In this document: positions 3,921-45,733 of the stretch, in pieces
Position numbering within the stretch: the stretch's first letter is position 1
Layout: every line of letters starts with the position of its first letter
From: Anaerolineae bacterium
GTDB lineage: Bacteria > Chloroflexota > Anaerolineae > UBA3071
Assembly (NCBI GenBank): GCA_029907105.1
Contig: JARYMM010000005.1
Span: 8,563 to 72,562, forward strand
Direction of reading: 5' to 3'
DNA length: 64,000 nt
Notes under the pieces: generated by a model
What the model saw: the letters and a program-made list of their open reading frames with translations, nothing else
The model's database searches: none
What the model was told of the DNA's origin: nothing
Position numbers and translations under genes: made by a program

Positions 3921-5516
3921 ATGTCCAAGCCAATCCGTATGCGGAACGTTCTGCTGGCCCTTTGCCTGCTGATCCTGCTTCCGGCGAGCGCGGCCGGGCT
4001 GAGCGCCCCGTCCGAGATGTCCCTCACGACCCCCGCGCCCTACGTGCGCGGCGAGGTCCTCGTGCAATGGCGGGATGCGGCGACGGCGGCCTCTGCCCGC
4101 CGCGACGTCCTCCAGGCCGGGCTGACCGTGTTGCAGGAAATCCCTCCGCTGCGCGTGGCGCGGCTGGCCGTGCCCTCCGGCCAGGAATGGGCATATATCG
4201 AGAGGCTGCGCCAGCACCCGCTCATCACCTACGCCGAGCCCAACTATCTCGTCTACGCCGCCGGCAGCGATGCCGTACAGCCCAACGATCCTTATTGGTC
4301 CAGGCAGTGGAACATGAACCGCATCGAAGCGCCCTCCGCCTGGGCCCTGAGCACAGGCCAGCCAGGGGTCAGCGTTGCCCTGCTCGACACCGGCGTGGAC
4401 ACAGGACACCCAGATCTCAGCGGCAACCTCCTGGCCGGATACGACTTCGTCAATAATGACGCCGACCCGGACGACGATCACGGCCACGGCACGCATGTGG
4501 CGGGCATCATCGCTGCCCAATTGAACAACGGCGTCGGCGTGGCCGGCGTCGCCCCCGCCATCAGCATCCTGCCCCTGAAGGTGCTCAACGAAAAAGGCGA
4601 AGGCGACCACTTTTGGGTCTCTCAGGGCATATCCTACGCCATCGCCAATGGAGCCAGAATCCTCAACCTCAGCTTCGCCGGCCCCTCGTCGGAGACCCTG
4701 GGCACGGCAGTACGCAATGCTTATAATGCCGGCGCGTTGCTGGTGGCCGCCACAGGCAACAATGGCATCGGCAGTGTCTCCTATCCCGCCGCCTATGCTG
4801 AGGTGCTGGCCGTTGCCGCCACCGACTACAATGACCGCTGGCCGTCCTATTCCAACTGGGGGCCGCAGGTGGACCTGGCCGCACCTGGTGGCACGTCGGG
4901 AAATCAGGTCTGGAGCACCTGGCGGAACGGCGGGTATGCCTGGAACTACGGCACTTCGATGGCCGTGCCCCACGTGTCGGGCGCGGCAGCGTTGATTCGC
5001 AGCGTCGCCCCCACGCTGTCCAGGGATGAGGTGGCAAACATCCTGCGCCAGAGCGCTGACCAGGTGGGGCAATTCCCCTATACGGGAGGCCGCAACGACT
5101 ACCTGGGCTACGGGCGGCTCAACGTCCACCGCGCCCTGCGCCAGGCCCTGCCCCCGACGCTCACCGTGCAGCCTGCGCAACTGTTCTTCCTTGGCGATAG
5201 CCAGCAATCGCCCGCCGCGCAGCAGTTGACCCTGAGCAACGAAAGCACCCAGACGCTGCAATGGCAGGCGGAAAAGCTCAGCGGCGGAAGCTGGCTCAAT
5301 CTCATCCCTCCCCTCAGCGGCAACATCACCTATCCATACCCGGCCAGGCTATGGGTCATGGTCACGGGTGGGCTGGATTACGGCACCTACGAAGGCAGCA
5401 TCCGCATCAGCAGCTCCACGCTGGGGGCGCAGGGCACCCCCCGAACGGTTCCCGTACGCCTGATTCTGGTGCCACGGCTGACGCGCGTCTATCTGCCTGT
5501 GGTAGAGAGCCGCTAG
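3921..5516 (+). CDS. secreted S8 family subtilisin-like serine peptidase
   Basis: Signal peptide. Asp/His/Ser triad contexts DTGVD, HGTHVAG, GTSMAVPHVSGAA. N-terminal propeptide-like region. C-terminal extra domain ending RVYLPVVESR. RBS AAAGGAG. Confidence 0.85.
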   Translation: MSKPIRMRNVLLALCLLILLPASAAGLSAPSEMSLTTPAPYVRGEVLVQWRDAATAASARRDVLQAGLTVLQEIPPLRVARLAVPSGQEWAYIERLRQHPLITYAEPNYLVYAAGSDAVQPNDPYWSRQWNMNRIEAPSAWALSTGQPGVSVALLDTGVDTGHPDLSGNLLAGYDFVNNDADPDDDHGHGTHVAGIIAAQLNNGVGVAGVAPAISILPLKVLNEKGEGDHFWVSQGISYAIANGARILNLSFAGPSSETLGTAVRNAYNAGALLVAATGNNGIGSVSYPAAYAEVLAVAATDYNDRWPSYSNWGPQVDLAAPGGTSGNQVWSTWRNGGYAWNYGTSMAVPHVSGAAALIRSVAPTLSRDEVANILRQSADQVGQFPYTGGRNDYLGYGRLNVHRALRQALPPTLTVQPAQLFFLGDSQQSPAAQQLTLSNESTQTLQWQAEKLSGGSWLNLIPPLSGNITYPYPARLWVMVTGGLDYGTYEGSIRISSSTLGAQGTPRTVPVRLILVPRLTRVYLPVVESR

Positions 5517-5536
5517 CCCCCTATCTGTGCCGATTT

Positions 5537-5672
5537 GTAACTACCCTGTCACTGCGAGCGAAGCGAAGCAGTCTCCTGGAATCATGAAGAGATTGCTTGG
5601 CCCTTTCGGGGCTCGCAATGACGCCAACCCACCGCTATATCTCACGTTGCCAGGCCGAAGGTAGGCAGTTAC
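5537..5672 (+). mobile_element. family-A MITE-like structured repeat, copy 1 (136 bp)
   Basis: Terminal inverted repeats GTAACTACC.../...GGTAGGCAGTTAC. Flanked by a perfect 8-bp direct repeat GCCGATTT (target-site duplication). Internal nested hairpins. It lies in the 5' leader of giant gene 1. Confidence 0.6.
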
Positions 5673-5791
5673 GCCGATTTACCGATCACCAATATCTTCC
5701 TGCCCTCTCCTTCGTCATCACGTTGTGGAGGATATGCGCCTGTCACGGGCTTTCCAGGCGCAAACCCAACGGTAAATCCAAGGAGGACGCG

Positions 5792-8700
5792 ATGAAAACC
5801 CGCATCTTGCTCTTGCTTGCTCTGGCCCTGGGCCTGGCCGGGCTGGGTCTCAGTGGCGGAGTGCAGCGACTGGAGGCGGCGAGTTCCAGGCCCTGGGATT
5901 CGGCGGCCAGCCCACAGAAGGCCGAAGCGGAGTGGGGGGACTGGCGCAGCGGTGGCCCCTACGGCGGGGATGTACAGGCGTTGGCCCTTTCCCCCGACTT
6001 CGGCGCTGATGGCCTGGCGCTGGCCGGCGGTTGGCGCACCGGCTATGCCGGGCCCACCGGCTACGGCATCGCCCGCACCACCGATGGCGGCGCGTCCTGG
6101 GCTCTTCTTTTCAGCGGCCCACCCTGGGATGATCTGGCCGTCTTCGACCTGGCCATTTCCCCTGCCTTTGCCGCCGACGGCACGGCTTTCGCCGCCACAG
6201 AGGCCGGCCTGCTGCGCAGCAGCGACCGCGGCAACACCTGGACGCAGCTACACGGCGGACTGCCCGGGCCAGGCAACGACGCCACCGTGGATGATATGGG
6301 CTTCGTGCGCCTGTCGCCCGCCTTCGCCGCCGACGGCACGCTCCTGACCGCGCCGCGCAACGGCTCCCTCTACCGCTCGACCGACCGGGGCAACACCTGG
6401 ACGGAGGTGCTCTCCGGACCAACTTCTGCCGCGGCCTTTTCCCGCTTCTTCGCCGCCAACCACACCGCCTTCGCCACACAGTTCGACGGCGTGGGTGCAA
6501 CCAACCTGCGGCGCTCCACCGACGGTGGGCTGACCTGGCCCCTCGTGCTGAGCCTGCCCGGCGTCCAGGTCAATGACATCCTGGAGACGTTCGAGAACGC
6601 ACTGCTGCTGGCAACCAACGACGGCGTCCTGCGGCTGCTGCCGGTCGGCGGCAGCTACGTGCCGGATACCGTTTCGCCTGACATCGAGGGCCCGGTCTAC
6701 CGGCTGGCGGCGGCAGGGGATCATCTCTACGCCGCGGCACAAAACGGCCTCTTCATCACCTTGACGGAGGGCCGCCGGTGGGATCGCTATGCCGACACGC
6801 CGGTCACTCCGTTCCGGTCCGTCGCCCCCTGCCCGTACTGGGGCTCCTGCCATGCCATGATGGCTGGCACGCACACGGGCATCCTGGGCACGCCCGACGA
6901 TAACCTGATCCCCTGGGCCTGGCTGCCCGGCCCGCACGCCCTGCACAGCGAGAGCGTGGCCGCCTCTCCGGCCTATGCTGCCGACGGCACTCTCTTCGCC
7001 GCCACCGATCATGGCCTTTTCCGCAGCACCGACCGCGGCCTGAGCTGGCAACTGATGGTCGCCGGCAGTCCTCCCGGCGATGATTACGCCTTCCTCAGAG
7101 TACGGATCTCGGCGGGCTATGCCAGCGATGGCACGGTCTTCGCCACCTACGAAAACCGCACTTTGGCCCTGACCGCCCTCTACAAATCCACCGACCGCGG
7201 CCTGACCTGGACGGTGATCCCCGGCCTGGGTGGGGGACGGGCGCTGGCGCTCTCGCCGGCCTATCCCACGGACCGCACCGTGTTCGTTGGACGAGTGGAT
7301 GTGCTGCACAAGTCCACCGACGGTGGCAACACCTGGACGAGCTACCCCATCGCCCCGCCCGATGAGGGCTTCTTCGTCCTCGAACTGGAGACGTCGCCAG
7401 CCTACGCCAGTGACCGCACGCTGCTGGCCACCGGCCTGGGCCGCGTTCGCCGCAGCACCGATGGCGGCGTCACCTGGCAGAACCTGAACACCTACGGCCC
7501 CTCCTACGGGTTGGCCATCTCGCCCAACTATGCCGCCGATGGCACGGCCTGGCACACCTATCGCGCCATCGAAGCCCCCGGCGACGACACGCCGGAAAGC
7601 GGCGTCCTGCGCACCACCGATCGCGGCACCACCTGGAGCTTTGCCACGGCCGGGCTGCCGGGCGTGTACGAGCCTTTCGCCTGGCCGCTGGCGGCCTCGC
7701 CCGGTTTCGCTGTTGACCGTTCGCTCTTCACCGCCCTGCGTGGGCAGTTCGTGGCCGGTACAGAGCACAGCCTCTACCGTTCCATGAACGGCGGCGACAC
7801 CTGGCTGAAACTCGGCCATGCCCCCGGCAACCCCAATCCCTATGACCTGGCGGTCACGACGAACCCTTCCGGCGGCCTGACCGTGCACATGGCCACCGAT
7901 GCTGGCGTCTGGCATTACAGCAGCCGTTGCGAGGAGCGGCTGGTCAACGGCGGCTTCGAGCAAGACCTGGCCTGGCAGTTCCCTGTCACGACCTACCCGG
8001 CAGATTACAGCACGAGTGTCGCGCACAGCGGCCTCCGCAGCCTGCGCACGGGCATCGTCAGCGGCCCCGACGTGTACAGTTATTCGTCGGCCAACCAGGC
8101 GGTGACCATCCCCGCCGGTGTGTCCAGCGCCACACTCACCTTCTGGTGGTATCCGATCTCGGCCGAAGGGCCGCTGGCGGCGGCCGCCGAACCCGACGCC
8201 GCACGCCTGCAGGCGGTGGCCGAGGGCACCCTGCCGGCCGGTGTGCTGGCCGGCGACCGCCAATACGCGCTCCTGCTGGATAGCGCCGGCCACACCCTCA
8301 AGACACTCCTGTGGACGCGTAGCGATGCCCGCACCTGGCAGCAGGCCAGTTTCAACCTGGCCGCCTACGCTGGCCAGGCCGTGCGCGTCCACTTCGGCAC
8401 CTACAACGACGGCGATGGGCGCAGCACGGCCATGTATGTGGACGATGCCTCGCTGATCGTCTGCTGGCCGGGGCCCGTGGAACCCACACCCACGGTGACG
8501 CCAACCAACACACCGACACCCAGGCTGACACCGACGAGCACACCGACATCCACGGCGACGCCTACCCGGCTGCCGCTGACGCCGCGCGCCTATCTGCCGT
8601 TGGTCCTCAGACGCCATACAGCGCCGCGCACGCCGACGCCCACCGCCACGCCCACGCGCACGACAACGGCCACACCAACGGCTACGCGGACACCCACAGC

Positions 8701-11700
8701 GACGCCTACCCCAACGCCGACACCTGGGGCCACGCCCGGTCCGGCCTGTTACGAGGCGCTGGTCAACGGCGGCTTCGAGACCGATGCCGGGTGGGTCATC
8801 CGCCCGAACCCTGTCCTGGCGGCTTACGTCACGACGCCGGTGCACGGTGGGACGCGCAGCATGCGCACCGGCATCGCCGCCGGCGGGGCCAATGTGGAAA
8901 GCTACTCCCCCGTTGAGCAAAGCATCCGCATTCCGCCGCTGCCCTTCCCCGGCATGGCCTCCACGGCCCAGTTGAGCTTCTGGCGCTACAACGTCTACGG
9001 CGACGGCGGCGCGGCCAGCACCCAGAGCACATCGCCGGACCTGAGCGCATTGCCGCGCAGTGAGGCCGAGTTGGCTGCGGCTACCTTTGCCAGCGATTTC
9101 TTCTACGCCATCATCATCCAGGAGGACGGCACCATTGACTGGCTGCTGGTGGAGCGTGTTCACAATCCCTCCTGGCGGTTGATGACGACCTCTCTGGACA
9201 TCGGCCGTTACGCGGGCAAGACAATCCGCCTGCAGTTCGGCACCTACAACAACGGCACAGGCGGCATCAGCCGCACCTATGTGGACGATGCCTCGCTGCA
9301 GGTATGCCCGCCGGCCGGCGCGCTGCTGCTGCCTGGCGGCTGGGTGCGCCGGGTGATCGGACGGCCGGAGATGAACACCCTCTACGCTGACGTGGGCGGT
9401 GCGCTGTATCGCTCCGACGATGCCGGGGCGCACTGGCGTCTGGCGGGCATGGCCCGTCCGGAGCATACCATCCTCAGCGCCAACCCGAACGTGCTTTACG
9501 CCGGCGACGGCTATCCGTGCTACGCTGGCGGCGATCCAGCGCCCATGTGGCGCAGCACCGACGGCGGGGCAAGCTGGCATCAACTGCCGGCCGGCCTCAA
9601 CCTGAAGCCGCTGGCCGCCCATCCTGTGGACGCCCGGCTCTATGCCGCCGGCTGTGACGGCCCTTACCTGAGCCCGGACGGCGGGGCCACCTTCGTCCAC
9701 CAGCCAGACCCGCTCTTCAGCATCTACGATGCCAGGTCCATCGCCCCTGTGGGCACGGCCTGGACCGACGTCTGGATCGGCGGCGTCAGCGAAGGCGGTG
9801 GCGGCGGCATACTGGTCAGCCGCGATAGCGGCGACACTTTCGCCATTTCTTATCCCAAGGCGGGGGATCCGGAGCCGGGCTGGCTGGGCAGGCTGGCCCT
9901 GGATCGCTTCCGGGCAGGCGGTGTCTTCGCCCCGGCGTACTATGGTTTCTTCTATACCCCCAACGACGGGGAAGCCTGGCTGAACCATTCGCAAGGGCTG
10001 GAAGAGGTCACCGGCGGCATCCGCCCGTCGGGACTGCACGTGGTGATCCAGGACCCGCTTGGCGGCCCGGACGGCCGGCTCTTCCTGGGCACCGAGCGCG
10101 GCCTGTACACGCGCGCCCCAAACACGCTCCTGTGGTACAAGATCGCCGGCCAGCCCTTTGACCTGCTGCCTGTGCGCGACCTGTTGCTGCTGGACGGCGC
10201 GCCGCGCTGGCTCTACGTGACCACCTCCTTCGGGGTCTTCCTGTACGATGTAACGCATGTGCCCCCGGCACCCACACCGACTTCCACGCCGACGAGCCTG
10301 CCCAGCCCGAGCCCTACGCCAACCCGGACAGCCACATCCACAGCGACACCCACGCCCGCTGCCACGACCACCCCGACGGCCACGCGCACATCAACAGCCA
10401 CGCCGACAGCCACCCCGACGGCCATCCCCACGGCGACGCCGGGCGTCTGGCCGACGCCATACGTGTTGCGCACGCTGAGCCTGCCGACGGGCAGCCATCC
10501 GCACGGCATCGGCCTGGATGGCCCGGGCGATCGGCTCTATGTAGCCTTCCATGGCCCAGATCACACCGGCCACACCCTGGGCGTGGTGCGTACCCTCACC
10601 CTGGACCTGATGGCCCAGGCCGAACTGAGCCCCAGCATCGGCCCCAACGGCGTCACTGCCCTTCTCCCAGGAGCCCGGATCGCCGTGGCCAACCGCCAGA
10701 CAGACGACGTAGCTGTGGTAGACCGCAACACATTGGCGGTTGTCCGGCGCATCCCGGCCGGCGATATGCCCGACGGCGTCATCGTTCAAGGCAATTTCGG
10801 CTACGTCGCCAATTTCGGCAACGACACGGTGACCGTGTTCGACCCCGTGAGCCTGGACGTGCTGCACACGCTGCATGTCGGCCACGAGCCGTCGCTCTTC
10901 GCTGCCGACCCGGAGGCCGGTGACGTGTACCTGTCGCTGCATGGCTCGAACCAGGTCGCCCGCCTGCACGACGGCGCGGTGGTCGGCCTTTACAACGGCA
11001 TCCAGGAACCCTATGGCCTGGCCTTCGACCCGGCCAGCCGGCGGCTCTATGCCGCCAACCGCGGCTGGGCGCATACGGTCACGGTGATTGACGTGATCAG
11101 CGGAAACGTGGTGGGCACTATCGGTGTGGGCAGGGAGCCATTCGTTCTGGAGGTGAACCCCAACAGTGGCCACCTGTTCGTGGTCTGTGGCGACGAAGTG
11201 AAGGTCTACCGCACGCTGGACTGGGCGCCGGTGGTCAACATCCCCGTGCCGCCTGGCGCCGAAGAGGGCATCGCCCTGCACAACGCCCTGAACCGCGTTT
11301 ACGTCACCAGCGGCGAGGGCGATGCGCTGACCGAAATTCAGGATGCCGCACCGCCGCTGGTCCTGTTCGCCAGCAACCGGGACGGCAATGGCGAGATCTA
11401 CCGCATGTTGCCCGACGGGCAGGAGCAGATCCGCCTGACCTTCACCGCCGAGGCTTACGAGACCAGGCCGGTGGGCTCTCCTTACGGACGCTGGATCGCC
11501 TATGAGCGGACGGACCCCGGCGGCACCACCCACCTCTGGCTGATGAGCCGCGATGGCCGCAACCCCCGCCAGCTCACCTTCGGCAGCAGTTACGAGCACT
11601 GCCCTGCCTGGTCCGGTGACGGCACCAGGTTGGCCTTCACCTCGAACCGGGACGGCAACTGGGAAATCTACACCCTGCGCCTGGCCGACGGCCTGGTGAC

Positions 11701-12175
11701 CCGCCTGACCTTCCATGCCGCAGCCGACGAGGGCCCCAACTGGTCGTGGGCCACAGGCCAGATCGTCTTCCAGTCCGACCGCTTTGGCCCGAATTCCGAG
11801 ATCTTGCGCATGGAGGCCGACGGCAGCGGCGTGGTGCGGCTGACCGTCAACCCCAACGGGGACAGCAGCCCGAGCTGGTCGCCGTCCGCTGATCGGATCG
11901 TCTTCTTCGGCAGCCGCGCCGAGCAGACACTGCACGTGATGCGGGCCGACGGTTCCGGCATTGCGCCGCTCGTCCCGGGCAGCCTGCGTCCGGCGGCTCC
12001 GGCCTGGGGCCCGGCCAGCGCGGGGGACGTCATCGCCTTCCAGGGGTATCGGCCCGGCAGCGGGCATAGCGAGATCTTCCGCGTCGCCCCCAATGGCAGC
12101 GGTTTGGTGCTCTTGACGTTCAACGCCGTGGACTTCGACTATGCGCCAGGGTGGCTGCCGGCGCCATCCCGGTAA
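5792..12175 (+). CDS. giant secreted multidomain protein: BNR/Asp-box beta-propellers, 2 CBM4/9/22-like modules, Thr/Pro linkers, YVTN beta-propeller, TolB-like PD40 propeller
   Basis: Start reassigned to ATG 5792 (RBS AAGGAGG, signal peptide MKTRILLLLALALGLAG). The tool ORF from 5597 reads through the MITE. Many S-x-D-x-G-x-T-W boxes (STDGGASW, STDRGNTW and others). VNGGFE...VDDASL jelly-roll modules twice. TPTPT linkers. YVANFGNDTVTVFD-type YVTN repeats. C-terminal DGNGEIYRM / DGNWEIYTL PD40 repeats. Confidence 0.8.
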   Translation: MKTRILLLLALALGLAGLGLSGGVQRLEAASSRPWDSAASPQKAEAEWGDWRSGGPYGGDVQALALSPDFGADGLALAGGWRTGYAGPTGYGIARTTDGGASWALLFSGPPWDDLAVFDLAISPAFAADGTAFAATEAGLLRSSDRGNTWTQLHGGLPGPGNDATVDDMGFVRLSPAFAADGTLLTAPRNGSLYRSTDRGNTWTEVLSGPTSAAAFSRFFAANHTAFATQFDGVGATNLRRSTDGGLTWPLVLSLPGVQVNDILETFENALLLATNDGVLRLLPVGGSYVPDTVSPDIEGPVYRLAAAGDHLYAAAQNGLFITLTEGRRWDRYADTPVTPFRSVAPCPYWGSCHAMMAGTHTGILGTPDDNLIPWAWLPGPHALHSESVAASPAYAADGTLFAATDHGLFRSTDRGLSWQLMVAGSPPGDDYAFLRVRISAGYASDGTVFATYENRTLALTALYKSTDRGLTWTVIPGLGGGRALALSPAYPTDRTVFVGRVDVLHKSTDGGNTWTSYPIAPPDEGFFVLELETSPAYASDRTLLATGLGRVRRSTDGGVTWQNLNTYGPSYGLAISPNYAADGTAWHTYRAIEAPGDDTPESGVLRTTDRGTTWSFATAGLPGVYEPFAWPLAASPGFAVDRSLFTALRGQFVAGTEHSLYRSMNGGDTWLKLGHAPGNPNPYDLAVTTNPSGGLTVHMATDAGVWHYSSRCEERLVNGGFEQDLAWQFPVTTYPADYSTSVAHSGLRSLRTGIVSGPDVYSYSSANQAVTIPAGVSSATLTFWWYPISAEGPLAAAAEPDAARLQAVAEGTLPAGVLAGDRQYALLLDSAGHTLKTLLWTRSDARTWQQASFNLAAYAGQAVRVHFGTYNDGDGRSTAMYVDDASLIVCWPGPVEPTPTVTPTNTPTPRLTPTSTPTSTATPTRLPLTPRAYLPLVLRRHTAPRTPTPTATPTRTTTATPTATRTPTATPTPTPTPGATPGPACYEALVNGGFETDAGWVIRPNPVLAAYVTTPVHGGTRSMRTGIAAGGANVESYSPVEQSIRIPPLPFPGMASTAQLSFWRYNVYGDGGAASTQSTSPDLSALPRSEAELAAATFASDFFYAIIIQEDGTIDWLLVERVHNPSWRLMTTSLDIGRYAGKTIRLQFGTYNNGTGGISRTYVDDASLQVCPPAGALLLPGGWVRRVIGRPEMNTLYADVGGALYRSDDAGAHWRLAGMARPEHTILSANPNVLYAGDGYPCYAGGDPAPMWRSTDGGASWHQLPAGLNLKPLAAHPVDARLYAAGCDGPYLSPDGGATFVHQPDPLFSIYDARSIAPVGTAWTDVWIGGVSEGGGGGILVSRDSGDTFAISYPKAGDPEPGWLGRLALDRFRAGGVFAPAYYGFFYTPNDGEAWLNHSQGLEEVTGGIRPSGLHVVIQDPLGGPDGRLFLGTERGLYTRAPNTLLWYKIAGQPFDLLPVRDLLLLDGAPRWLYVTTSFGVFLYDVTHVPPAPTPTSTPTSLPSPSPTPTRTATSTATPTPAATTTPTATRTSTATPTATPTAIPTATPGVWPTPYVLRTLSLPTGSHPHGIGLDGPGDRLYVAFHGPDHTGHTLGVVRTLTLDLMAQAELSPSIGPNGVTALLPGARIAVANRQTDDVAVVDRNTLAVVRRIPAGDMPDGVIVQGNFGYVANFGNDTVTVFDPVSLDVLHTLHVGHEPSLFAADPEAGDVYLSLHGSNQVARLHDGAVVGLYNGIQEPYGLAFDPASRRLYAANRGWAHTVTVIDVISGNVVGTIGVGREPFVLEVNPNSGHLFVVCGDEVKVYRTLDWAPVVNIPVPPGAEEGIALHNALNRVYVTSGEGDALTEIQDAAPPLVLFASNRDGNGEIYRMLPDGQEQIRLTFTAEAYETRPVGSPYGRWIAYERTDPGGTTHLWLMSRDGRNPRQLTFGSSYEHCPAWSGDGTRLAFTSNRDGNWEIYTLRLADGLVTRLTFHAAADEGPNWSWATGQIVFQSDRFGPNSEILRMEADGSGVVRLTVNPNGDSSPSWSPSADRIVFFGSRAEQTLHVMRADGSGIAPLVPGSLRPAAPAWGPASAGDVIAFQGYRPGSGHSEIFRVAPNGSGLVLLTFNAVDFDYAPGWLPAPSR

Positions 12176-18300: not shown

Positions 18301-20071
18301 CGACGGCGGCGCCACCTGGACGCATCAGCCCTCGCCGCTATGGGGCGTCCTGGAGGTGAAGCACATCGCCCCTGTGGAACCGACCTGGCAGACGGTGTAC
18401 GCGGCCGGCGTCAGCGAAGGCGGCGGCGGCGCAATCCTCAAGAGCAGCGACGGCGGCGCGACCTGGCAACAGGCGACGCCGCTCTACGCCGACATCTGGT
18501 GGATCACCGACCTGCTGGTGGACCCGGCCAATACGCTGGTGGTGCGCTTCACCGAGCCGCACATGCCGTGGTGGAGCCGCGACGGCGGCACCACCTGGTG
18601 GTGGAGCTGGTCCGGCCTGCATGACGTGGTCTATAACCCCGGCGGCCCGCCCGATCAGACCTACGGCCTCTACGACCTGGAGCTGGACGCCGCCGATCAC
18701 GAGCAGCTTTACCTGGGCACCATCCGCGGGCTCTACGTCAGCGGCGACGGCGGCTGGGCCTGGTACAAGGTCACGGGCGGCCATACGTGGGAGAATGCGC
18801 CCCTGGGCAAACTGCTGCTCCTGGAAGCGGCGCCCACGAAGCTCTACCTGGTGCGGGGTGGGCAGCAAGGTGTCCATGTCTTCGACCTGGGCGGCCTGCC
18901 CCCCATCCCCACACCGACGCCGACCAACACGGTGACGCCCACGGCCACGCGTACTCCCACGCCCACAGCGACGCGCACGCCGACACCCACCCCCACGCGT
19001 ACACCCACCGGCACAGCGACGCCCACCGCGACGCGCACGCCGACGCCGGCGGCGCCCTATGTGCTGGCGACCATTGCCCTGCCCGCAGGCAGCCACCCGC
19101 ATGGCGTGGCCCTCGACCTGGCCGGAAACCGCGCCTTCGTCGGCCATCATGGCCTGAACCACGACGGCCATGCCCTCTCCGTCATTAACGGCAACACGCT
19201 GGCCGTGGCAGCCACCATTGACCTGGGGACAGCAGCGCAAGGACCCAATGGCGTCGCTTACCACCCGGCCACGGATCGGGTCTACGTGGCCAATCGCAAC
19301 AGCAACAACGTCTCCGTGGTCAATCCGACGGCGGGCATCGTGGTCAAGCATCTGCCTGTGGGCTCCATGCCCAACGGCGTAGCTGTGGTGGACAACCTGG
19401 TGTACGTGGCCAACTTCAACGACGGCACGGTGACGGTGATAGACGCCAGCACAGCCACGGTGGATCACACCATCCCGCTAGTGGGGACGCAGCCGTCGCA
19501 CTTCGCCGTGGACCAGGCCCAGAGCTACGCCTATCTGAGCCTGCATGGCGACGGGGCGGTGAGCTACCTGCACGACGGCGACCGCTGGAACTATCTTCCC
19601 GGCATACCCGAAGCCTATGGGATTGCCTTCAATCCTGTGGCCCGCCGGCTGTACGTGGGCAGCCGCGGGTTCCACCACAGGGTGACGATGGTGGATGTGG
19701 ACACGAACACCCAGCTGGGCGCGTTCCCGGTGGACTGTGAACCGTACATGCTGGGCGTCAACCCCAACACGGGGCACTTCTTCGTCGTCAACAGGGACTT
19801 CGTGCAGGTACGGCGCACGGCAGATACGACCCTGGTGACCACGCTGCCACTGCCCATCGGGGCGGAGGAGGGGATCGCTGTGGACACGGTGCGCAACCGC
19901 GTCTACATCACCAGCCGCGACTCGGACACGGTGACCGTAGTGCAGGATACACCACTACCTGTCACTGCGAGCGAAGCGAAGCAGTCTCCTGGAATCAATA
20001 GGAGATTGCTTCGCCCCTTCGGGGCTCGCAATGACGCCAACTCAACGCTATATCTCACGTTGCAAGGCTGA
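12338..20071 (+). CDS. giant secreted multidomain protein, paralog of the upstream gene: BNR/Asp-box propellers, CBM-like modules, Thr/Pro linkers, YVTN propeller
   Basis: Start ATG 12338 (RBS AAGGAG, signal peptide MRKRILPPLVLALILSV). More than 25 Asp-box motifs (STNGGWSW, STDGGDTW and others). NSGFEFDTGW and VNGGFETDEVW CBM-like modules. TP linkers. YVTN repeats. The last ~38 codons and the stop come from the family-A MITE copy 2. Confidence 0.8.
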   Translation: MRKRILPPLVLALILSVLTLGTASWALESGNAQVVYPISNLQSPTSDFQPLTSGPRGGSVAAVAISPNFPSDRIAFAGVRGYGVYRSTNGGWSWERVTPDEERSGWAIGDLEVSPAFPDDETVFVLTNIWTYGGNVYRSTDGGDTWYPPQSHPDGILPGLRALAVSPDFANDQTVYALHSSRSLVSTDGGRHFTDLPDWFGGQNVQVLAFSPRYATDRILFAVAGGTLYRSTNAGGSWTAIGAGLPGSPEVLAVAPGFAHPGPLLAVSSLDHAVYFSSDSGDHWVASDLTLGASTRPWLAFAPDYPSSLVAFAGSGGPTGVYRSTDGGLHWQVVGEPTEDGNGLPGPNSFDMAFSPAYATDYLSLLATSAGVYRTASPGDPPPWWPRNDGLPRLPVARIAAAPAWTNTLFAATSFFETVRAYSTSSRYDGNIHRSTDGGQTWQPVSPRLDSVQALVISPNFPGDHTLFAATGYLAGHGQQGGTVYRSTDSGLHWEAVGDLVYIHDLVISPDYGHDRTLFANAQYSTGMPVGPGIFRSTDGGETWTRLSDMFPAWLAISPNFADDNILFAATPASLYRSANRGASWTPVLGGSFSAPPVISPHFWLDRTAYVVNGDQLYRSKDAGLTWQPVADDLPDGPGPVLRFGPADGLTTVVGGSVGTGGTQGTQSIVFHSTDGGSHWPSLDGPLPMGVDDMLWYRSVPGNMWTLFAAGDDGLWSLRWAEEAPWFGEWRSGGPRGGQALAIALSPEFASDGLVFAGGGQWLSGRGDRTGKGLFRSADGGQTWMASGKSTFSGYASSIEDVDISSHWPSDGTAFVGTWGGVYRTTDWGATWQRVAEEVLHTPGAATTVAMSPGFYLDGIVLAGGGYGGLFYTEDGGDHWQITLGEIGPSADVAFSPAFLADTTAFAGAYDGVWRTEDRAAHWGHVLDLDSGSVSDVEVSCDFENDRTVYAATWIGTAPPYMMRSTDGGDTWHVADSGLDRLINAMDTACDGGSTILFAGGTALFRSTDGGESWQMLPGWPEGVSIQELAVSPQFASDHTLLAGTYAGVYRSTDGGASWTLSEGFVPLETRVVAPSPAYAADGTLFAGTEMGVYRSTDRGHSWQPANKGLVGSYAVTILDVVVSPQFASDHTLFASWKLSGRIGGNVYRSTDAGENWERLWGTGYVGDLAISPQFPGDQTLFAVAEGMVFKSTDGGVSFTPKLSELTPAVEIGISPQYGSDHTVYAVGYGPVYRSTDGGETWLPLAGWPPHYGIGLSPAFGADGTLFATYREIEGSGLRPESGVIRSTNRGASWDLATAGLPGTYEPWPQSLALSPDFATDRMLFTAVSGIPHLGPNQVYGSASAGDGWAPLPPIPGEPSLYKLSVSSPLPLGEGPGVRELHAGTAAGAWHYSSACFNAIANSGFEFDTGWTMPITPYPAAYSTDLAHSGYRSLRTGIPPGGPNMLSYSSAYQTVSIPAGAASVTLRFWEYPLSGEASQLKMPAHVNPLTASLAVDAQYVLVLDASGQWLRTLLWQAADSRLWTQHQFDLSDYAGQTIRLHFGTYNNGTGGLTAMYVDDVVLEVCPELPPTPTPTRTPTATPTVGPSPTPTATPVRDRFQYLPLVLKRYVPPRPTPTATPTRTPSPTRTPTPTFTPSPTVGPSPTATPTPTPSGACTEAVVNGGFETDEVWVRPVTAMQAVYSTAVAHGGTRSMRTGIPAGGSNILSYSSAYQTITLPPGPGTATLSFWYYPVSGEATATTSQLQAEGGYSILDTRYSNIQYPISNTQYPSFSPAAADRQYALLRDGAGTWHVLLWTLSNARTWLRYEADLSAYRGQTVRLHFETYNDGVGGTTAMYLDDVSIQVCPPTPPTPTATLTPTPTRTPPADALIINGEWVHGLVGHRASSTLYAYSATHLYRSNDAGMTWATAGSAVGEFLMSPANPNVLYRGPGYPCLAGGPDVPMYKSTDGGASWFELPAGLNLKVLAAHLTDPNRVYAAGCNGPYLTSDGGATWTHQPSPLWGVLEVKHIAPVEPTWQTVYAAGVSEGGGGAILKSSDGGATWQQATPLYADIWWITDLLVDPANTLVVRFTEPHMPWWSRDGGTTWWWSWSGLHDVVYNPGGPPDQTYGLYDLELDAADHEQLYLGTIRGLYVSGDGGWAWYKVTGGHTWENAPLGKLLLLEAAPTKLYLVRGGQQGVHVFDLGGLPPIPTPTPTNTVTPTATRTPTPTATRTPTPTPTRTPTGTATPTATRTPTPAAPYVLATIALPAGSHPHGVALDLAGNRAFVGHHGLNHDGHALSVINGNTLAVAATIDLGTAAQGPNGVAYHPATDRVYVANRNSNNVSVVNPTAGIVVKHLPVGSMPNGVAVVDNLVYVANFNDGTVTVIDASTATVDHTIPLVGTQPSHFAVDQAQSYAYLSLHGDGAVSYLHDGDRWNYLPGIPEAYGIAFNPVARRLYVGSRGFHHRVTMVDVDTNTQLGAFPVDCEPYMLGVNPNTGHFFVVNRDFVQVRRTADTTLVTTLPLPIGAEEGIAVDTVRNRVYITSRDSDTVTVVQDTPLPVTASEAKQSPGINRRLLRPFGARNDANSTLYLTLQG

Positions 20072-20085
20072 AGGCAGGCAGTTAC
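19966..20085 (+). mobile_element. family-A MITE-like repeat, copy 2 (5' truncated or diverged left end)
   Basis: About 90% identical to copies at 5537 and 23901 from CTGTCACTGCGAGC to GGCAGTTAC. Lacks the GTAACT left terminus and has no target-site duplication. Overlaps the 3' end of giant gene 2. Confidence 0.55.
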
Positions 20086-20107
20086 GTTAGAACGGGCGTT
20101 CGGAAAC

Positions 20108-20589: not shown

Positions 20590-20608
20590 CAGTTTGTCGG
20601 AGAGGGCC

Positions 20609-20711
20609 GTCATTCTGAGGAGCGGGAGCGGCCGAGCTGCCGGAGCGACGAAGAATCTCACTTCACAGCCAAAAACGAGATTCTTCGGCCCCTTCGGGGC
20701 CTCAGAATGAC
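20609..20711 (+). repeat. family-A-prime structured element (103 bp), architectural relative of family A
   Basis: Outer stem GTCATTCTGAGG/CCTCAGAATGAC. Inner hairpin CGAAGAATCTC...GAGATTCTTCG. GCCCCTTCGGGGC tetraloop hairpin. Same three-stem layout as family A with compensatory stem changes. Sits in the convergent ssb / lipid-kinase intergenic region and is nested in a longer palindrome (arms about 20595-20604 and 20743-20752). Confidence 0.5.
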
Positions 20712-20827
20712 AAAATGAACGATGTTTTGTGTCGGCACCTTTCTCTCCGACAGGTTGCCGGAGACCTTGGGCGCGAATGAAGCAGACCTCCGAGGTCCGG
20801 GAGACCTCGGAGGTCTTTTGGCTGCGG

Positions 20828-22002: not shown

Positions 22003-23442
22003 ATGCGATACGCGAAACTGGACGCCCTGCTGCTGACCCTGCTCGTCATGGCCCGGGTGCGCATTGACACCCTGGCCGAAGCCGCCGTGCTCCCCCTGCG
22101 GCAACAGGATGTGGCCCGCCACCCGCTGCTGGGGCGGCTGCTCTCGCCTGCGGCCATGGAACTGCTGGCCCAGCAGGGCTTTGCCGACCCCATCACCCTG
22201 CTGCTCATCGTGCTGGCCCTGGCCGCGCTGGCCGCTTACCTGATCCTCAGCTTCAGCTCCGGCCAGCTCAGCCGCCGCGGCTACCGGGCCAGGCTGGCCC
22301 TCATCTGGCTCATCGTGGTGCTGACCGTCGTCGCCCCCACGTTGAAGATGACGCTGCTGCGGGAGCAGAGCGGGCCGGCCAGTTATTGCCACGACGGCGG
22401 CGTCATCCAGACTGAAGTTACCATCGAGTATCTTCTCAGCGGCCGCAACCCCTACGTTGAGGACTACCTGCAAACGCCCATGGCCGAATGGGGGTTGAGC
22501 GAGTTCCGCACGGCGCTCTACCATTACCCTTACCTGCCCTGGACCTTCGTTTTCTCGGCACCATTTTACGGGTTGAGCCAGGCAGTCCTCGGCTGGTACG
22601 ACCAGCGCTTCGTCTATCTCTTGCTGTTTGTGCTCACCCTGGCCCTGGCCCCGGCGCTGGCCGGCGGGCGCCAAAGCAGGCTGTTGCTGGTCATGACTTT
22701 GGGGCTCAACCCCATCATGGGCAGCGACATCATCTTCGGCCAGAACGACAGCTTCGTGCTCTTCTGGATTGTGCTGGCGCTGGTGCTTCTGGCCCGTGGC
22801 AAGGAGATGACCGATGAGCGCCGCGCCACGCCCTGGCGGCTGGGCTCGGCGGCGGCTTTCGGCCTGGCCTGCGCTTCCAAGCCCACGGCCTGGCTGCTGG
22901 TTCCCTTCTACGTGCTGCTGCTCGTGCCAGCGTCGTGTGCCGGCCAGGAGACCGGCGCCAACCGGAGGGGGTGGGCTCGCTGGCTGCTGACTTTGCTGCG
23001 CCGGGCCTGGCCGGCCCTGGCACTCTTCCTGCTCCTCGTTTTGCCTTATCTCATCTGGGACGCCGGGGCCATGGTGGACGACGTATGGCGCTGGGCGAGC
23101 GGGCGCGGGGAGCACGCTTACCAGATCTGGGGCTGGGGCGCTTCCAATCTGCTGCTGGCGCTGGGCTGGGTAAACTCCCGCTTCGACACCTGGCCCTTCT
23201 GGCTGCCGCAGCTTCTCGTCTGTGGGCCGCTTTTGGCCTTTCTGCTCTGGCGGCAGTGGCGGGACAATCGCATCGCCGCTGCGAGCAGCGGCTACGCCGT
23301 CTTCCTCCTGGCCTTCTTCTTCCTCTCTCGCTTCCTGAACGAAAACTACCTGGGCTACATCCTGGCCTTTCTGGCCCTGGGCGTGTTCGGAGGGGGAAAA
23401 GAAGCGCAAAGGGAGCCTTTCAGCCCCGGTTTGGCGTCATAG
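22003..23442 (+). CDS. polytopic membrane protein, possibly a GT-C-type (DUF2029/GT87-like) glycosyltransferase
   Basis: More than 10 predicted TM segments. Trp/Arg-rich loops resembling PMT/ArnT-like lipid-linked glycosyltransferases. Family assignment is tentative. Confidence 0.4.
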   Translation: MRYAKLDALLLTLLVMARVRIDTLAEAAVLPLRQQDVARHPLLGRLLSPAAMELLAQQGFADPITLLLIVLALAALAAYLILSFSSGQLSRRGYRARLALIWLIVVLTVVAPTLKMTLLREQSGPASYCHDGGVIQTEVTIEYLLSGRNPYVEDYLQTPMAEWGLSEFRTALYHYPYLPWTFVFSAPFYGLSQAVLGWYDQRFVYLLLFVLTLALAPALAGGRQSRLLLVMTLGLNPIMGSDIIFGQNDSFVLFWIVLALVLLARGKEMTDERRATPWRLGSAAAFGLACASKPTAWLLVPFYVLLLVPASCAGQETGANRRGWARWLLTLLRRAWPALALFLLLVLPYLIWDAGAMVDDVWRWASGRGEHAYQIWGWGASNLLLALGWVNSRFDTWPFWLPQLLVCGPLLAFLLWRQWRDNRIAAASSGYAVFLLAFFFLSRFLNENYLGYILAFLALGVFGGGKEAQREPFSPGLAS

Positions 23443-23449
23443 TTCGTAT

Positions 23450-23674
23450 CTACGCTGGCCGTAAGGTGGCCTGATGAGCCGCTTCAGCGCGGGCGACGTT
23501 GGCCTCGATTTCCTGTACGAGGGTGGTTATCTCCGGTGCCAACTTCGTATAACCGCAGCGCGGCGTTCGACATACGTACCAGGCCACACCGCGCAAGATG
23601 ACACGACCTCCGGCCAGGTGCAAGTCAATGCGGCGCATATCCATACCACCCCCGCAGCGATCACAGCGGCTCAC
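23450..23674 (-). CDS. YgiT-type zinc-finger domain protein (MqsA N-terminal-like)
   Basis: CDRCGGG...(26 aa)...VAWYVCRTPRCGYT matches the C-x2-C...VPAWVCxxCGExY YgiT zinc-ribbon pattern (recalled). GTG start. Confidence 0.45.
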   Translation of the reverse strand: MSRCDRCGGGMDMRRIDLHLAGGRVILRGVAWYVCRTPRCGYTKLAPEITTLVQEIEANVARAEAAHQATLRPA

Positions 23675-23687
23675 GCGCTCGCTCCAC

Positions 23688-23804
23688 TCAAAGGTAAACC
23701 ATTCCCCCTCTCATCATCTCCCCGGTGTCTGTAGCGTCCCAATACGCCGCTTCCTCGGCTATCGCCTGACGAATAGCTTCTCTGTCCGCTTGTTTTTCGC
23801 TCAT
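23688..23804 (-). CDS. small acidic ORF (38 aa) upstream of and co-oriented with the zinc-finger gene
   Basis: ATG preceded by GAGGAGATC. Product MSEKQADREAIRQAIAEEAAYWDATDTGEMMRGGMVYL. Stop lies 13 nt before the zinc-finger GTG. No homology recognised. Confidence 0.3.
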   Translation of the reverse strand: MSEKQADREAIRQAIAEEAAYWDATDTGEMMRGGMVYL

Positions 23805-23900
23805 GATCTCCTCAGCCTCCTGTAACGGTGCTTCTCCCCCCTTGTCATATCACGAGCCGTGACCACGTAGAAGACGTCGTCGTAACTTCTGTCCAGAACG

Positions 23901-24042
23901 GTAACTACCTACCCTGTCACTGCGAGCGAAGCGAAGCAGTCTCCTGGAATCGAAACAGGAGATTGCTTCGCCCCTTCGGGGCTCGCAATGACGCCAGCCC
24001 ACCGCTATATCTCACGTTGCAAGGCCGAAGGTAGGCAGTTAC
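23901..24042 (+). mobile_element. family-A MITE-like repeat, copy 3 (142 bp, intact termini)
   Basis: Left end GTAACTACCTACC and right end GGTAGGCAGTTAC form a 12/13-bp terminal inverted repeat. Flanked by direct repeat CCAGAACG (8-bp target-site duplication). Confidence 0.6.
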
Positions 24043-24280
24043 CCAGAACGACGAAAAGATACCGGCCGGCAAAGGTTTGCCCGTAGACATGATAACGGGG
24101 CAATCCGTAGCGAGTGATCCCTGCTCGGCGGGCCAAATGGTTGCCTGGTTCGCAGACCTCCTCTACCTCCCAGGGTTCCACGCCGTGCTCGGCGATATGT
24201 TGTACGTTCCACCCATCCTATTCGAGCTCTTCAATGCGCATGCATGTCCTCGCTGCCTCAGTACCCCGCTACCTCGGTGC

Positions 24281-25978
<1,698 letters not shown>

Positions 25979-41366: not shown

Positions 41367-42473
41367 CTACCTGTTCCGTCGTTGCAACCAGACGATGGAC
41401 CCGCCAAGCAGCCCTGCCATGCCAAGCGCGGCAGCGCCCAGGGCCAGCAACGCTCCCGGACGGGCCTTGGCTGCCGCACGCTCACCCCCGCTCACTGGCG
41501 TGGGCACGGCTTCCGGCTCTGGCAGGCGGAGGGGCGCAGGAGTGACCGTGGGCGTCGGCGAAGGGGTTGCCGTTGCCGTAGCTGTGGGAGTCGCTGTCGG
41601 TGTTGGCGTATCGGTGGCTGTCGCCGTGGCCGTGGCCGTCTCCGTCGGCGTCAGGGTCGGCGTGGTCGTGGGTATCGGCGTTCGGCGTTCGGCGTCTTCA
41701 GAAGGCAACTCCGAACCCTGAACTCCGAACCTCGAACCCGGCGTGGCCGTAGGCGGCACCGGCGTCGCCGTCGGCTGCACCGGGTCCACGAACAGAGCGA
41801 TGGCGTCCAGGAATATGTAGTTGTTGCCGGTGGAAAAATTGTGATCCACCAGGATGAACAGGGTGATGGTCTCCGCCTGGGCCACAGCCGAGACGTCAAT
41901 GTTAGGGCCTTCGCCGGGCGGGTAATTGACGATGCGGCCTTCCCCCCGATGCATCGGCCCCCAGACCACGGTAGGGGCGGTGGGATCCGTGCCCCCCGTG
42001 GGGTCAATGCCCAGTTGACGGCCAAAGGCATCGGGGGCGTTAGGTGCACCCCAACCCAGCGAAGCCTTGTAAGCCACGCCGGGCTGGACGTCGCCCACCC
42101 GCGTGTAGATGCCCGCCCTGAACGTGCCGCCGTCAGACCACATGCGCAGCGAAGGCGCGCCGAAAACGGTGTCAACATCCTTCATGAAGACCAGGTCGCC
42201 TTCCAGGACGAAAGGCGTCCAACCGGCGGGCACCTGGCGGGGCGGACTGCCCACCCACTCGTCGAAGTTGCAGTTCCACAGGATGTTGGGCGGAACGCAA
42301 GGGTCACCGGCCAGAAGCGGGTTGACCGGCAGGAACAGCAACGCGCCAGCAATGCACAAAAGAAAGCCCGCTCGTATAATATGTGCTCCTGCTGGACGGC
42401 CGCGTCCAGCAGCCAGGTGGCGGACGTGGCCGTCCGCCACGAGCGACATCACATAACTCGCTTTCCGCAACAT
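41367..42473 (-). CDS. C-terminally membrane-anchored secreted protein with CBM4/9-like jelly-roll domain and Thr/Pro linker
   Basis: N-terminal signal/TM. NCNFDEW...FLDAIALFVD module resembling the NGGFE...VDDxSL CBM architecture of the giant proteins. [27 protein letters not shown] linker. C-terminal TM plus RRNR. Confidence 0.45.
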   Translation of the reverse strand: MLRKASYVMSLVADGHVRHLAAGRGRPAGAHIIRAGFLLCIAGALLFLPVNPLLAGDPCVPPNILWNCNFDEWVGSPPRQVPAGWTPFVLEGDLVFMKDVDTVFGAPSLRMWSDGGTFRAGIYTRVGDVQPGVAYKASLGWGAPNAPDAFGRQLGIDPTGGTDPTAPTVVWGPMHRGEGRIVNYPPGEGPNIDVSAVAQAETITLFILVDHNFSTGNNYIFLDAIALFVDPVQPTATPVPPTATPGSRFGVQGSELPSEDAERRTPIPTTTPTLTPTETATATATATDTPTPTATPTATATATPSPTPTVTPAPLRLPEPEAVPTPVSGGERAAAKARPGALLALGAAALGMAGLLGGSIVWLQRRNR

Positions 42474-45294: not shown

Positions 45295-45733
45295 CTCCGC
45301 GGGGAGGACTCGAACCTCCAGCCAACCGGTTACGTCTACCCCTGTGTTTCCACAGGGAACGGACTATCTCATCACCCCAGAGGGGTGCGGGGCGCTCGAG
45401 GGTGGCTTATCGGTCGGGCTCCTCACCACCTAGTCTCTGCACCTTCCTGGCTACCCAAGGCCCTTTGGCCAGGCTTGGCTCAGGGTTACCACCACCCGAA
45501 GTGCTGAGGCTTCCCTGCTAGGCGTACTTTTTTAGTTCCTTGAGTTATCGAATTGACCGAGTTCTTTTTGGTTGTCAGGCTTCCTTCTCCGTCTAAGACG
45601 CCTGCCAACCAAGCAGCGTCCGCGATGTTCATGCTGCACGCCTAGTTTGATTCACCCCGTTTTTCCTCTAGCCATTGCTGACTAGGGCTGCCAACCTGAC
45701 AGCCGGTCGCTCTGCCAATTGAGCTACCGCGGA
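45295..45733 (-). tRNA. tRNA-Asn(GUU) interrupted by a group I intron between anticodon positions 35 and 36
   Basis: Exon 1 (45733-45699) UCCGCGGUAGCUCAAUUGGCAGAGCGACCGGCUGU plus exon 2 (45332-45295) UAACCGGUUGGCUGGAGGUUCGAGUCCUCCCCGCGGAG give a canonical 73-nt cloverleaf. U8, G18G19, U33, anticodon GUU, T54-psi-C and G73 are all in place. CC is genomically encoded. Confidence 0.65.
45333..45698 (-). ncRNA. group I self-splicing intron (IC3-like), 366 nt, no internal ORF
   Basis: 5' exon ends in U paired with G of internal guide GCAGCC (P1). GGUU immediately 5' of the guide pairs with 3'-exon AACC (P10). Terminal G precedes the 3' exon. Core block GAAGGUGCAGAGACUAGGUGG resembles the P7/J6-7 region of the Azoarcus tRNA-Ile intron (recalled). 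Confidence 0.6.

Follow-up and report, generated by a model that had tools for sequence, protein, structure and literature searches.

The question raised by this locus is what kind of element is represented by three short, closely similar sequences in the DNA of an uncultured Anaerolineae bacterium, and which enzyme has moved them. The whole stretch of 64,000 nucleotides that was analyzed is called the window here, and the repeated sequences are called family A. By comparing the copies with each other, with related metagenomic contigs, and with insertion sequences (ISs) of known termini, we consider it almost certain that family A is a true MITE.

Copies and termini of the family-A element

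Three copies are located on the + strand of the window, at 5537-5672 (copy 1, 136 bp), 19955-20085 (copy 2, 131 bp), and 23901-24042 (copy 3, 142 bp, the most complete of the three), and in blastn they are the only full-length matches to copy 3 in the window (5538-5672 with 92.7% identity, 19958-20085 with 93.8%, and copy 3 itself). A preliminary description of this DNA, made from the sequence alone, had placed three + strand copies here with about 90% identity; they exist as placed, and their pairwise identity in global alignments is 92-97% with gaps excluded. The start of copy 2, previously set at 19966, is corrected to 19955, where CTACC of the left repeat is kept and the terminal GTAA is gone; this left-truncated copy lacks a duplication. 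Copy 3 consists of a left TIR (GTAACTACCTACC, 23901-23913, +) followed by CT, an imperfect core hairpin module of 77 nt (23916-23992, +) that gives a self inverted match in blastn, a unique 3' segment of 37 nt (23993-24029, +), and a right TIR (GGTAGGCAGTTAC, 24030-24042, +).

The terminal repeats of family A are GTAACTACC(TACC) and GTAACTGCCTACC, and the tips are GTAACTACC and GTAACTGCC, the ends being given as GTAACTRCCTACC. A TIR of 13 bp, as originally assigned to the family, applies to copy 3 only, in which 12 of the 13 positions pair. In copy 1 the left repeat has 9 nt (GTAACTACC), with one CTAC unit missing, and eight of these nine terminal positions pair with the full-length right repeat (GGTAGGCAGTTAC). 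The right repeat of copy 2 is present with one mismatch. The TIR pattern GTAACTNCCTACC, searched with ≤1 mismatch, was found four times in the window, every time at an element end, when 0.05 occurrences were expected by chance.

Copy 1 is flanked on the left (5529-5536) and on the right (5673-5680) by the identical 8-mer GCCGATTT, and copy 3 is flanked by CCAGAACG at 23893-23900 and 24043-24050. As the preliminary description had it, these 8-bp direct repeats are perfect and differ between the two copies (chance ~1.5e-5 per copy). They also lie outside the element and are not part of its consensus, being single-copy host sequence that changes from copy to copy. The 8-bp duplication shows only that the target was cleaved in a staggered manner and says nothing of donor processing (cut versus copy). 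Copy 1 has a perfect duplication despite its short left repeat, and therefore we infer that ~9 terminal nucleotides are enough for mobilization, so that the functional tip of family A would be ~9 nt long (GTAACTRCC), reaching 13 nt in copy 3. Because copies 1 and 2 have in common the short left repeat, a 2-nt deletion in the loop, and one substitution, they probably derive from a master element that had only the 9-nt left tip and would still have been able to transpose.

The predicted fold of the element is much more stable than that of shuffled sequences (z = -7.8 for the + strand and -8.7 for the - strand). Copy 1 has a degraded apical stem. The longest internal ORFs of the copies reach at most ~45 codons and correspond to hairpin-derived peptide. 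Prokaryotic MITEs are 50-500 bp long and include, for example, the QMITEs of Coxiella, the Rickettsia palindromic elements, Correia, and RUP (PMC10969869). Family A is like them in its size, terminal inverted repeats, flanking direct repeats, lack of coding capacity, and stable stem-loop, and also in that it disrupts a gene and is fused in-frame to a host ORF. Unlike the usual prokaryotic MITEs, it is not AT-rich (55-57% GC, in a GC-rich host with 65% GC over the window), and it comes from an uncultured member of the Anaerolineae. Family A is a recently active MITE, that is, a new sequence family of an ordinary and well-known kind of element.

Insertion sites and their counterparts in relatives

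The methylmalonyl-CoA mutase and the S8 peptidase encoded in the window correspond to MDH7485201.1 and MDH7485194.1, respectively (100% identity each). The closest relative is a syntenic contig of 59 kb (ENA ERZ4756919 NODE_1099, comprising loci L016 and L153) with ~90% nucleotide identity and a mutase that is 96% identical; the more distant relatives are L017-L019 and L020-L022, the latter with peptidases 84-89% identical. The comparison of orthologous sites, which had been proposed as a check, revealed no element at the site of any of the three copies in the related metagenomic contigs, and no further family-A members were found in 43 kb of the contig of the closest relative. As judged from sequence comparison, it was shown that the three insertions at unrelated sites postdate the split from relatives of ~90% nucleotide identity. 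Segmental duplication was rejected as the source of the copies, the flanks having nothing in common except the 8-mers.

Copy 1 begins 20 nt past the stop codon of the S8 peptidase gene and ends 119 nt ahead of the start of giant gene 1 (5792). In L020, L021, L022, and L153, no element is present in the spacer that extends from the peptidase stop codon to the conserved 5' region of giant gene 1. This spacer is variable at the site of copy 1, and L022 and L020 hold a single stretch resembling the GCCGATTT-ACCGATC of the window. At the sequence level, the absence of the element is clear, and the conservation of the precise empty site is approximate. A scan around copy 1 found no promoter-like or terminator-like signals, and for this reason no regulatory role is claimed for this copy.

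Giant gene 1 itself (5792-12175) encodes 2,127 aa with BNR/sortilin-type repeats and Pro-Thr linkers. It is missing in the closest relative (L153, 11693-11987), where only the conserved 5' region of the gene and ATGAAAAGC are left and are followed by the homologue of giant gene 2. Since a gene starting like giant gene 1 is present in the more distant relatives L020 and L022, its absence from L153 is probably a deletion in that relative.

At copy 2, the window is homologous to L016/L153 along giant gene 2 as far as 19954 and again from exactly 20086 onward. At this break, L016/L153 have a TAG stop codon, a spacer of 236 nt, and then the shared GTTAGAACGGGCGTTCGGAAACTTGACA. Because the homology to L016 restarts to the base at the 8-mer GTTAGAAC (20086-20093), which abuts the intact right end of copy 2, this end is a true transposon-host junction. 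The copy begins with CTACC-TGTCAC..., and four left-terminal nucleotides of the element are missing in the window, together with the duplicate on that side, the spacer of ~236 nt, and the original stop codon of giant gene 2. The stretch 19955-20071 now supplies the last 38 codons (LPVTASEAKQSPGINRRLLRPFGARNDANSTLYLTLQG) and the stop (TGA at 20069-20071) of giant gene 2, so that the fusion of copy 2 to the 3' end of this gene, recognized from the start, is borne out with a tail that is entirely MITE-derived. Copy 2 inserted at GTTAGAAC, upstream of the ssb promoter, and its missing duplication is most simply explained by a later deletion of ~250 bp, which would have taken the tip on the left together with the spacer and the stop of giant gene 2. 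In-frame fusions of MITEs to ORFs are a known outcome (PMC10969869).

Copy 3 had been considered intergenic. It is not, because removal of the element together with one duplicate (23901-24050, 150 nt) fuses two - strand ORF pieces and restores the full-length BrnT reading frame with a product of 96 residues. The restored product matches the Pfam BrnT_toxin profile over positions 1-77 of 77 (E 1.5e-7, 32.1 bits, just below the Pfam cut-off of 34.5 bits), compared with positions 1-57 only and 24.5 bits for the interrupted ORF, which means a gain of 7.6 bits on excision. The brnT-like gene (23801-24241, -) is a pseudogene twice over, because copy 3 splits it and its codon 8 is an in-frame TGA. 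At the end of the gene, the stop codon shares bases with the ATG of the small ORF that follows, an overlap of the kind seen in toxin-antitoxin pairs. The complete cassette of brnTA and copy 3 (23399-24282) is absent in L016-L019. This toxin-antitoxin-like cassette, on the - strand, is placed between the mutase gene and a membrane-protein gene, and its other ORFs encode 38 aa (23688-23804) and a zinc-finger protein of 74 aa (23450-23674). In the relatives L016-L019, a ParE/Phd pair is located on the opposite side of the mutase gene.

Thus, the reading of family A as a non-autonomous DNA transposon, moved by a transposase whose action leaves an 8-bp target duplication, is backed by the empty sites, the restoration of BrnT, and the junction of copy 2. 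Its three copies do all lie on the + strand, as first reported, and this common orientation has no meaning relative to transcription: copies 1 and 2 are in + units and copy 3 is in a - unit, and three copies facing the same way is a chance event of 1 in 4.

Core hairpin module and a second element

The 77-nt core of family A starts with GTCACTGCGAG and ends with CTCGCAATGAC, which are the termini of a very widespread hairpin module. The widespread form of this module is GTCATTGCGAG...GCAATCTC-loop-GAGATTGC...CTCGCAATGAC, with GTCATTGCGAG as the canonical 5' terminus. Its canonical 29-nt arm (GTCATTGCGAGCGAAGCGAAGCAATCTCC) is identical in 15 unrelated IMG/VR contigs, and the 3'-arm pattern GAGATTGCTTCG-N(5-30)-CTCGCAATGAC occurs at least 169 times, distributed over at least 120 loci of IMG/VR. 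In many cases the variable insert of the 3' arm forms a self-complementary mini-stem, the sequence of which differs between instances; other variants are not self-complementary. The family-A core is like the widespread module in its termini, its two-arm architecture, and the variable side stem in the 3' arm. It differs by two transitions in the 5' arm (GTCACTGCGAG...GCAGTCTCC) and in being embedded between GTAACT repeats that bear a duplication, whereas the complete hairpins in IMG/VR have no GTAACT outer repeats and are often preceded by TT. No family for this hairpin was found in Rfam, and literature searches with the hairpin sequence and with typical peptide translations returned no name or paper. 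The module is apparently undescribed, and it is the only unusual aspect of family A.

A second MITE-like element is located at ~20592-20770 of the window, just past the stop codon of ssb. It has the outer inverted repeats CAGTTTGTCGGAGAG / CTCTCCGACAGGTTG and a homologous hairpin (GTCATTCTGAGG...CCTCAGAATGAC) with the CCCCTTCGGGG side stem that is common to family A. This element is absent at the orthologous site of L016, and no clear target duplication was seen at its ends.

These observations bear on the origin of the element. It is possible, if rather doubtful, that family A is a composite, in which an independent, widespread hairpin element is nested in a minimal MITE of ~60 bp made of the two ends and the 3' segment, and that this hairpin, rather than the outer repeats, is what matters biologically. 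The occurrence of the core termini in so many hairpins that have no outer GTAACT repeats would fit such nesting, as would the element at ~20592-20770, where different outer repeats enclose a homologous hairpin with the same side stem. On the other hand, the searches gave no version of the MITE devoid of the hairpin, which is present in all three copies; nesting, if real, would be older than the spread of the family and would leave the way in which the copies moved unchanged. The composite reading is compatible with mobilization of family A as a MITE and refines its origin. Most likely, the hairpin would be a passenger or nested module that the transposase does not require. Because two unrelated MITE shells carry the module in one genome, it may also be considered whether the core is a structured module of DNA or RNA under selection, or else a hairpin that is mobile in its own right with an enzyme of its own, and is spread by hitch-hiking in MITEs; we regard this as unlikely.

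Mobilizing transposase

In agreement with the preliminary description, no transposase gene was found in the window: Pfam searches of the plausible ORFs other than the two repeat-rich giant - strand ORFs (49355-53845 and 58608-63674) gave nothing but domains of housekeeping and surface proteins, and none of three IS66-like transposases used in tblastn matched the window or the relatives. No full-length IS with family-A ends was found. The search for internal similarity of family A to any IS was also negative, and the same holds for IS66-like transposase genes. In type II MITEs, the terminal repeats are the sole feature in common with an IS (PMC10969869). A gene encoding a transposase with DDE_Tnp_1 and DUF4277 domains is present in the closest relative (L153, 7673-8767) beside a DUF2085 gene, and its counterpart region in the window has no transposase. 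This gene belongs to another IS that is active in the sister lineage; it was rejected as the source of family A, since it is not IS66-like and the contig has zero GTAACTRCC tips.

The two giant - strand ORFs (1,496 and 1,688 aa) are made up for the most part of GGCGTG-type repeats with a period of 12 or 18 nt, and 41367-42473 was noted along with them; a repeat search gave the families D1-D4, with 68-101 copies each. Elsewhere in the window, a tRNA gene (45298-45731, -) is split by a group I intron into a 5' half CCGCGGTAGCTCAATTGGCAGAGCGACCGGCTGTCA and a 3' half AACCGGTTGGCTGGAGGTTCGAGTCCTCCCCGCGGA. Rfam Intron_gpI matches at 45340-45621 with 52.5 bits, the anticodon loop CU-GUC-AA suggests tRNA-Asp(GUC), and ARAGORN reported no tRNA.

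The candidates named at the outset for the transposase of family A were IS256-, ISL3-, and IS66-like enzymes. The ends of IS66 elements open with GTAA, and the family makes 8-bp repeats (PMC11946415). In ISDge4, an active member of the ISBst12 group of the IS66 family, the TIRs are GTGACTACTCAGCA / GTAACTGCTCAGCA and the direct repeat is 8 bp long (PMC12898284). For comparison, the ends and duplications of eight single-ORF IS66-like elements from public plasmids were measured. The element of Geobacillus pHTA426 has the ends GTATCTATTCAGCCC / GTAACTATTCAGCCC, the duplication GACGAGTT, and the tips GTAACTAT and GTATCTAT at its two ends. That of Deinococcus wulumuqiensis has GTAACTGCTCAGCA at both ends, the duplication TAAAAATC, and the tip GTAACTGC, and that of Candidatus Chlorohelix, which also belongs to the Chloroflexota, has GTAACAATTCAG / GTAACAGTTCAG, duplicates AATTATTT, and has the tip GTAACA. 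The two elements from Acaryochloris (ends GTTACTGCCCAGGCT, duplication CTTCATTC, tip GTTACTGCC) and Leptolyngbya (ends GTAACTACTCAGG, duplication ATCAGCGG, tip GTAACTAC), the one from Rhodococcus (ends GTAACTGGTCACGT, duplication TCGTTCGA, tip GTAACTGG), and ISAva2 (ends GTAAGGATTCAGGT, duplication GAATCCAG, tip GTAAGG) were measured in the same way, and the element of Bacillus thuringiensis has the ends GTAACTACTCAGCTT and the tip GTAACTAC with no clear duplication. Altogether, an 8-bp duplication was found in seven of the eight elements, GTAAC at both ends in six, and a GTAACT tip in five.

The MITE tips GTAACTAC and GTAACTGC match the ends of the ISBst12 group over 8 nt, including the asymmetry of A on the left and G on the right. 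Beyond the tip, at positions 9-13, the MITE has CTACC versus TCAGC in the ISBst12-group consensus GTAACTRCTCAGC, and the match ends at 8-9 nt. Family A is like the ISBst12-group elements (ISDge4 of Deinococcus geothermalis and the element of Geobacillus kaustophilus pHTA426) in the 8-bp duplication and the GTAACT(A/G)C termini. It is unlike them in having no transposase gene, in its length of 136-142 bp versus ~1.5-1.65 kb, and in its repeats, which are 9-13 bp long versus 13-15 bp and depart from theirs from position 9. In the IS elements measured here, the repeats have 14-15 bp. Family A is a putative IS66 derivative because of its tip and its duplication only.

Among the three candidates, the terminal sequence favors IS66, more precisely its single-ORF ISBst12 group; an enzyme of this type is the likely mobilizer of family A. 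We hypothesize that a single-ORF DDE transposase of the ISBst12 group, encoded elsewhere in the genome, mobilizes family A in trans. Binding would take place at the GTAACTRC tips, and the enzyme would cut the target with a stagger of 8 bp. Taken as a whole, the explanation that family A is a MITE mobilized in trans by such an enzyme is very likely.

The main alternative to this enzyme is another DDE family that duplicates 8 bp, namely IS256, ISL3, IS6, IS1595, or the ISH1 group of IS5. The length of the duplication alone does not separate these families, no transposase was seen in the window, and the match to ISBst12-type ends spans the first 8-9 nt only. However, the ends of IS256, ISL3, IS6, IS1595, and the ISH1 group of IS5 have GG, GGC, or GAG motifs and are not known to have GTAA. 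Moreover, single-ORF IS66-like elements of five phyla have the GTAACT(A/G)C tip in common, and the difference between A on the left and G on the right in ISDge4 is repeated in family A. Mobilization by one of these other families is therefore judged to be quite unlikely.

Readings of the element other than a MITE fare much worse. A REP/BIME-like or IS200/IS605-derived palindrome, moved as single-stranded DNA by an HUH (Y1) transposase, would account for the strong hairpin potential of family A, and the TT that often precedes the core hairpin class elsewhere would fit a sequence-specific insertion of single-stranded DNA. Nevertheless, such palindromes insert beside a short fixed motif, and HUH-type elements are not known to have target duplications or terminal inverted repeats, so that this very improbable reading is excluded for the whole element by the two perfect 8-bp duplications of different sequence outside the inverted GTAACT tips. 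Equally improbable is a structured non-coding RNA gene present in several copies, or a regulatory motif, that is under selection and not mobile, for which the very stable fold (z about -8) and the position of copy 1 in a 5' leader region could speak, against the unrelated contexts of the copies (a leader, a coding 3' end, and the inside of a toxin gene) in opposite transcriptional senses, their absence at orthologous sites in close relatives, the degraded apical stem and signal-free surroundings of copy 1, and the lack of any Rfam match over the copies at the gathering threshold, with noise only at E ≤ 10.

Distribution of family A

An exact 23-mer of the unique 3' segment (CGCTATATCTCACGTTGCNAGGC) was found neither in the GTDB representative genomes nor in the JGI metagenomes (0 in each). 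The 20-mer of the right end (GGCYGAAGGYAGGCAGTTAC) had one match in the GTDB representative genomes (L023) and eight in the JGI metagenomes; these eight were rejected as MITEs, since they represent the same L023 locus, a match in a coding region, or one human-gut locus present on six contigs. In L023, an Anaerolineae MAG contig (DAOTYW010000350.1), the 20 nt at 5139-5158 match the right end of copy 2 exactly and lie upstream of bfr, which encodes bacterioferritin. Two more GTAACTRCC tips occur in 8 kb of this contig, at 36-48 and 915-923, one of them as the full 13-mer GTAACTGCCTACC, when ~0.1 would be expected by chance. Because the identity is confined to 20 nt and a MITE body is lacking, the match in L023 may be either a relic or a coincidence. 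A profile of the - frame MITE peptide gave no candidate among 5.8 billion proteins, and blastn against plasmids revealed no family-A members, with weak matches to the hairpin part in Novosphingobium only.

Significance for Anaerolineae and the probable link to the IS66 family

The three insertions, dated against relatives of ~90% identity, document recent transposon activity in an uncultured Anaerolineae lineage, and their consequences for the host genes are visible at two of the sites. Copy 3 is a clean example of a MITE that inactivates the toxin gene of a toxin-antitoxin pair. By replacing the stop codon, copy 2 adds a 38-residue tail to a surface-type protein of 2,500 residues. In annotation, neither this tail nor the small ORFs that derive from the hairpin are to be taken as genuine protein sequence. 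The hairpin module, which is abundant in public viral contigs, merits a study of its own. A literature search gave no earlier report of a MITE ascribed to the IS66 family, and family A may be the first MITE linked to its poorly studied ISBst12 group.
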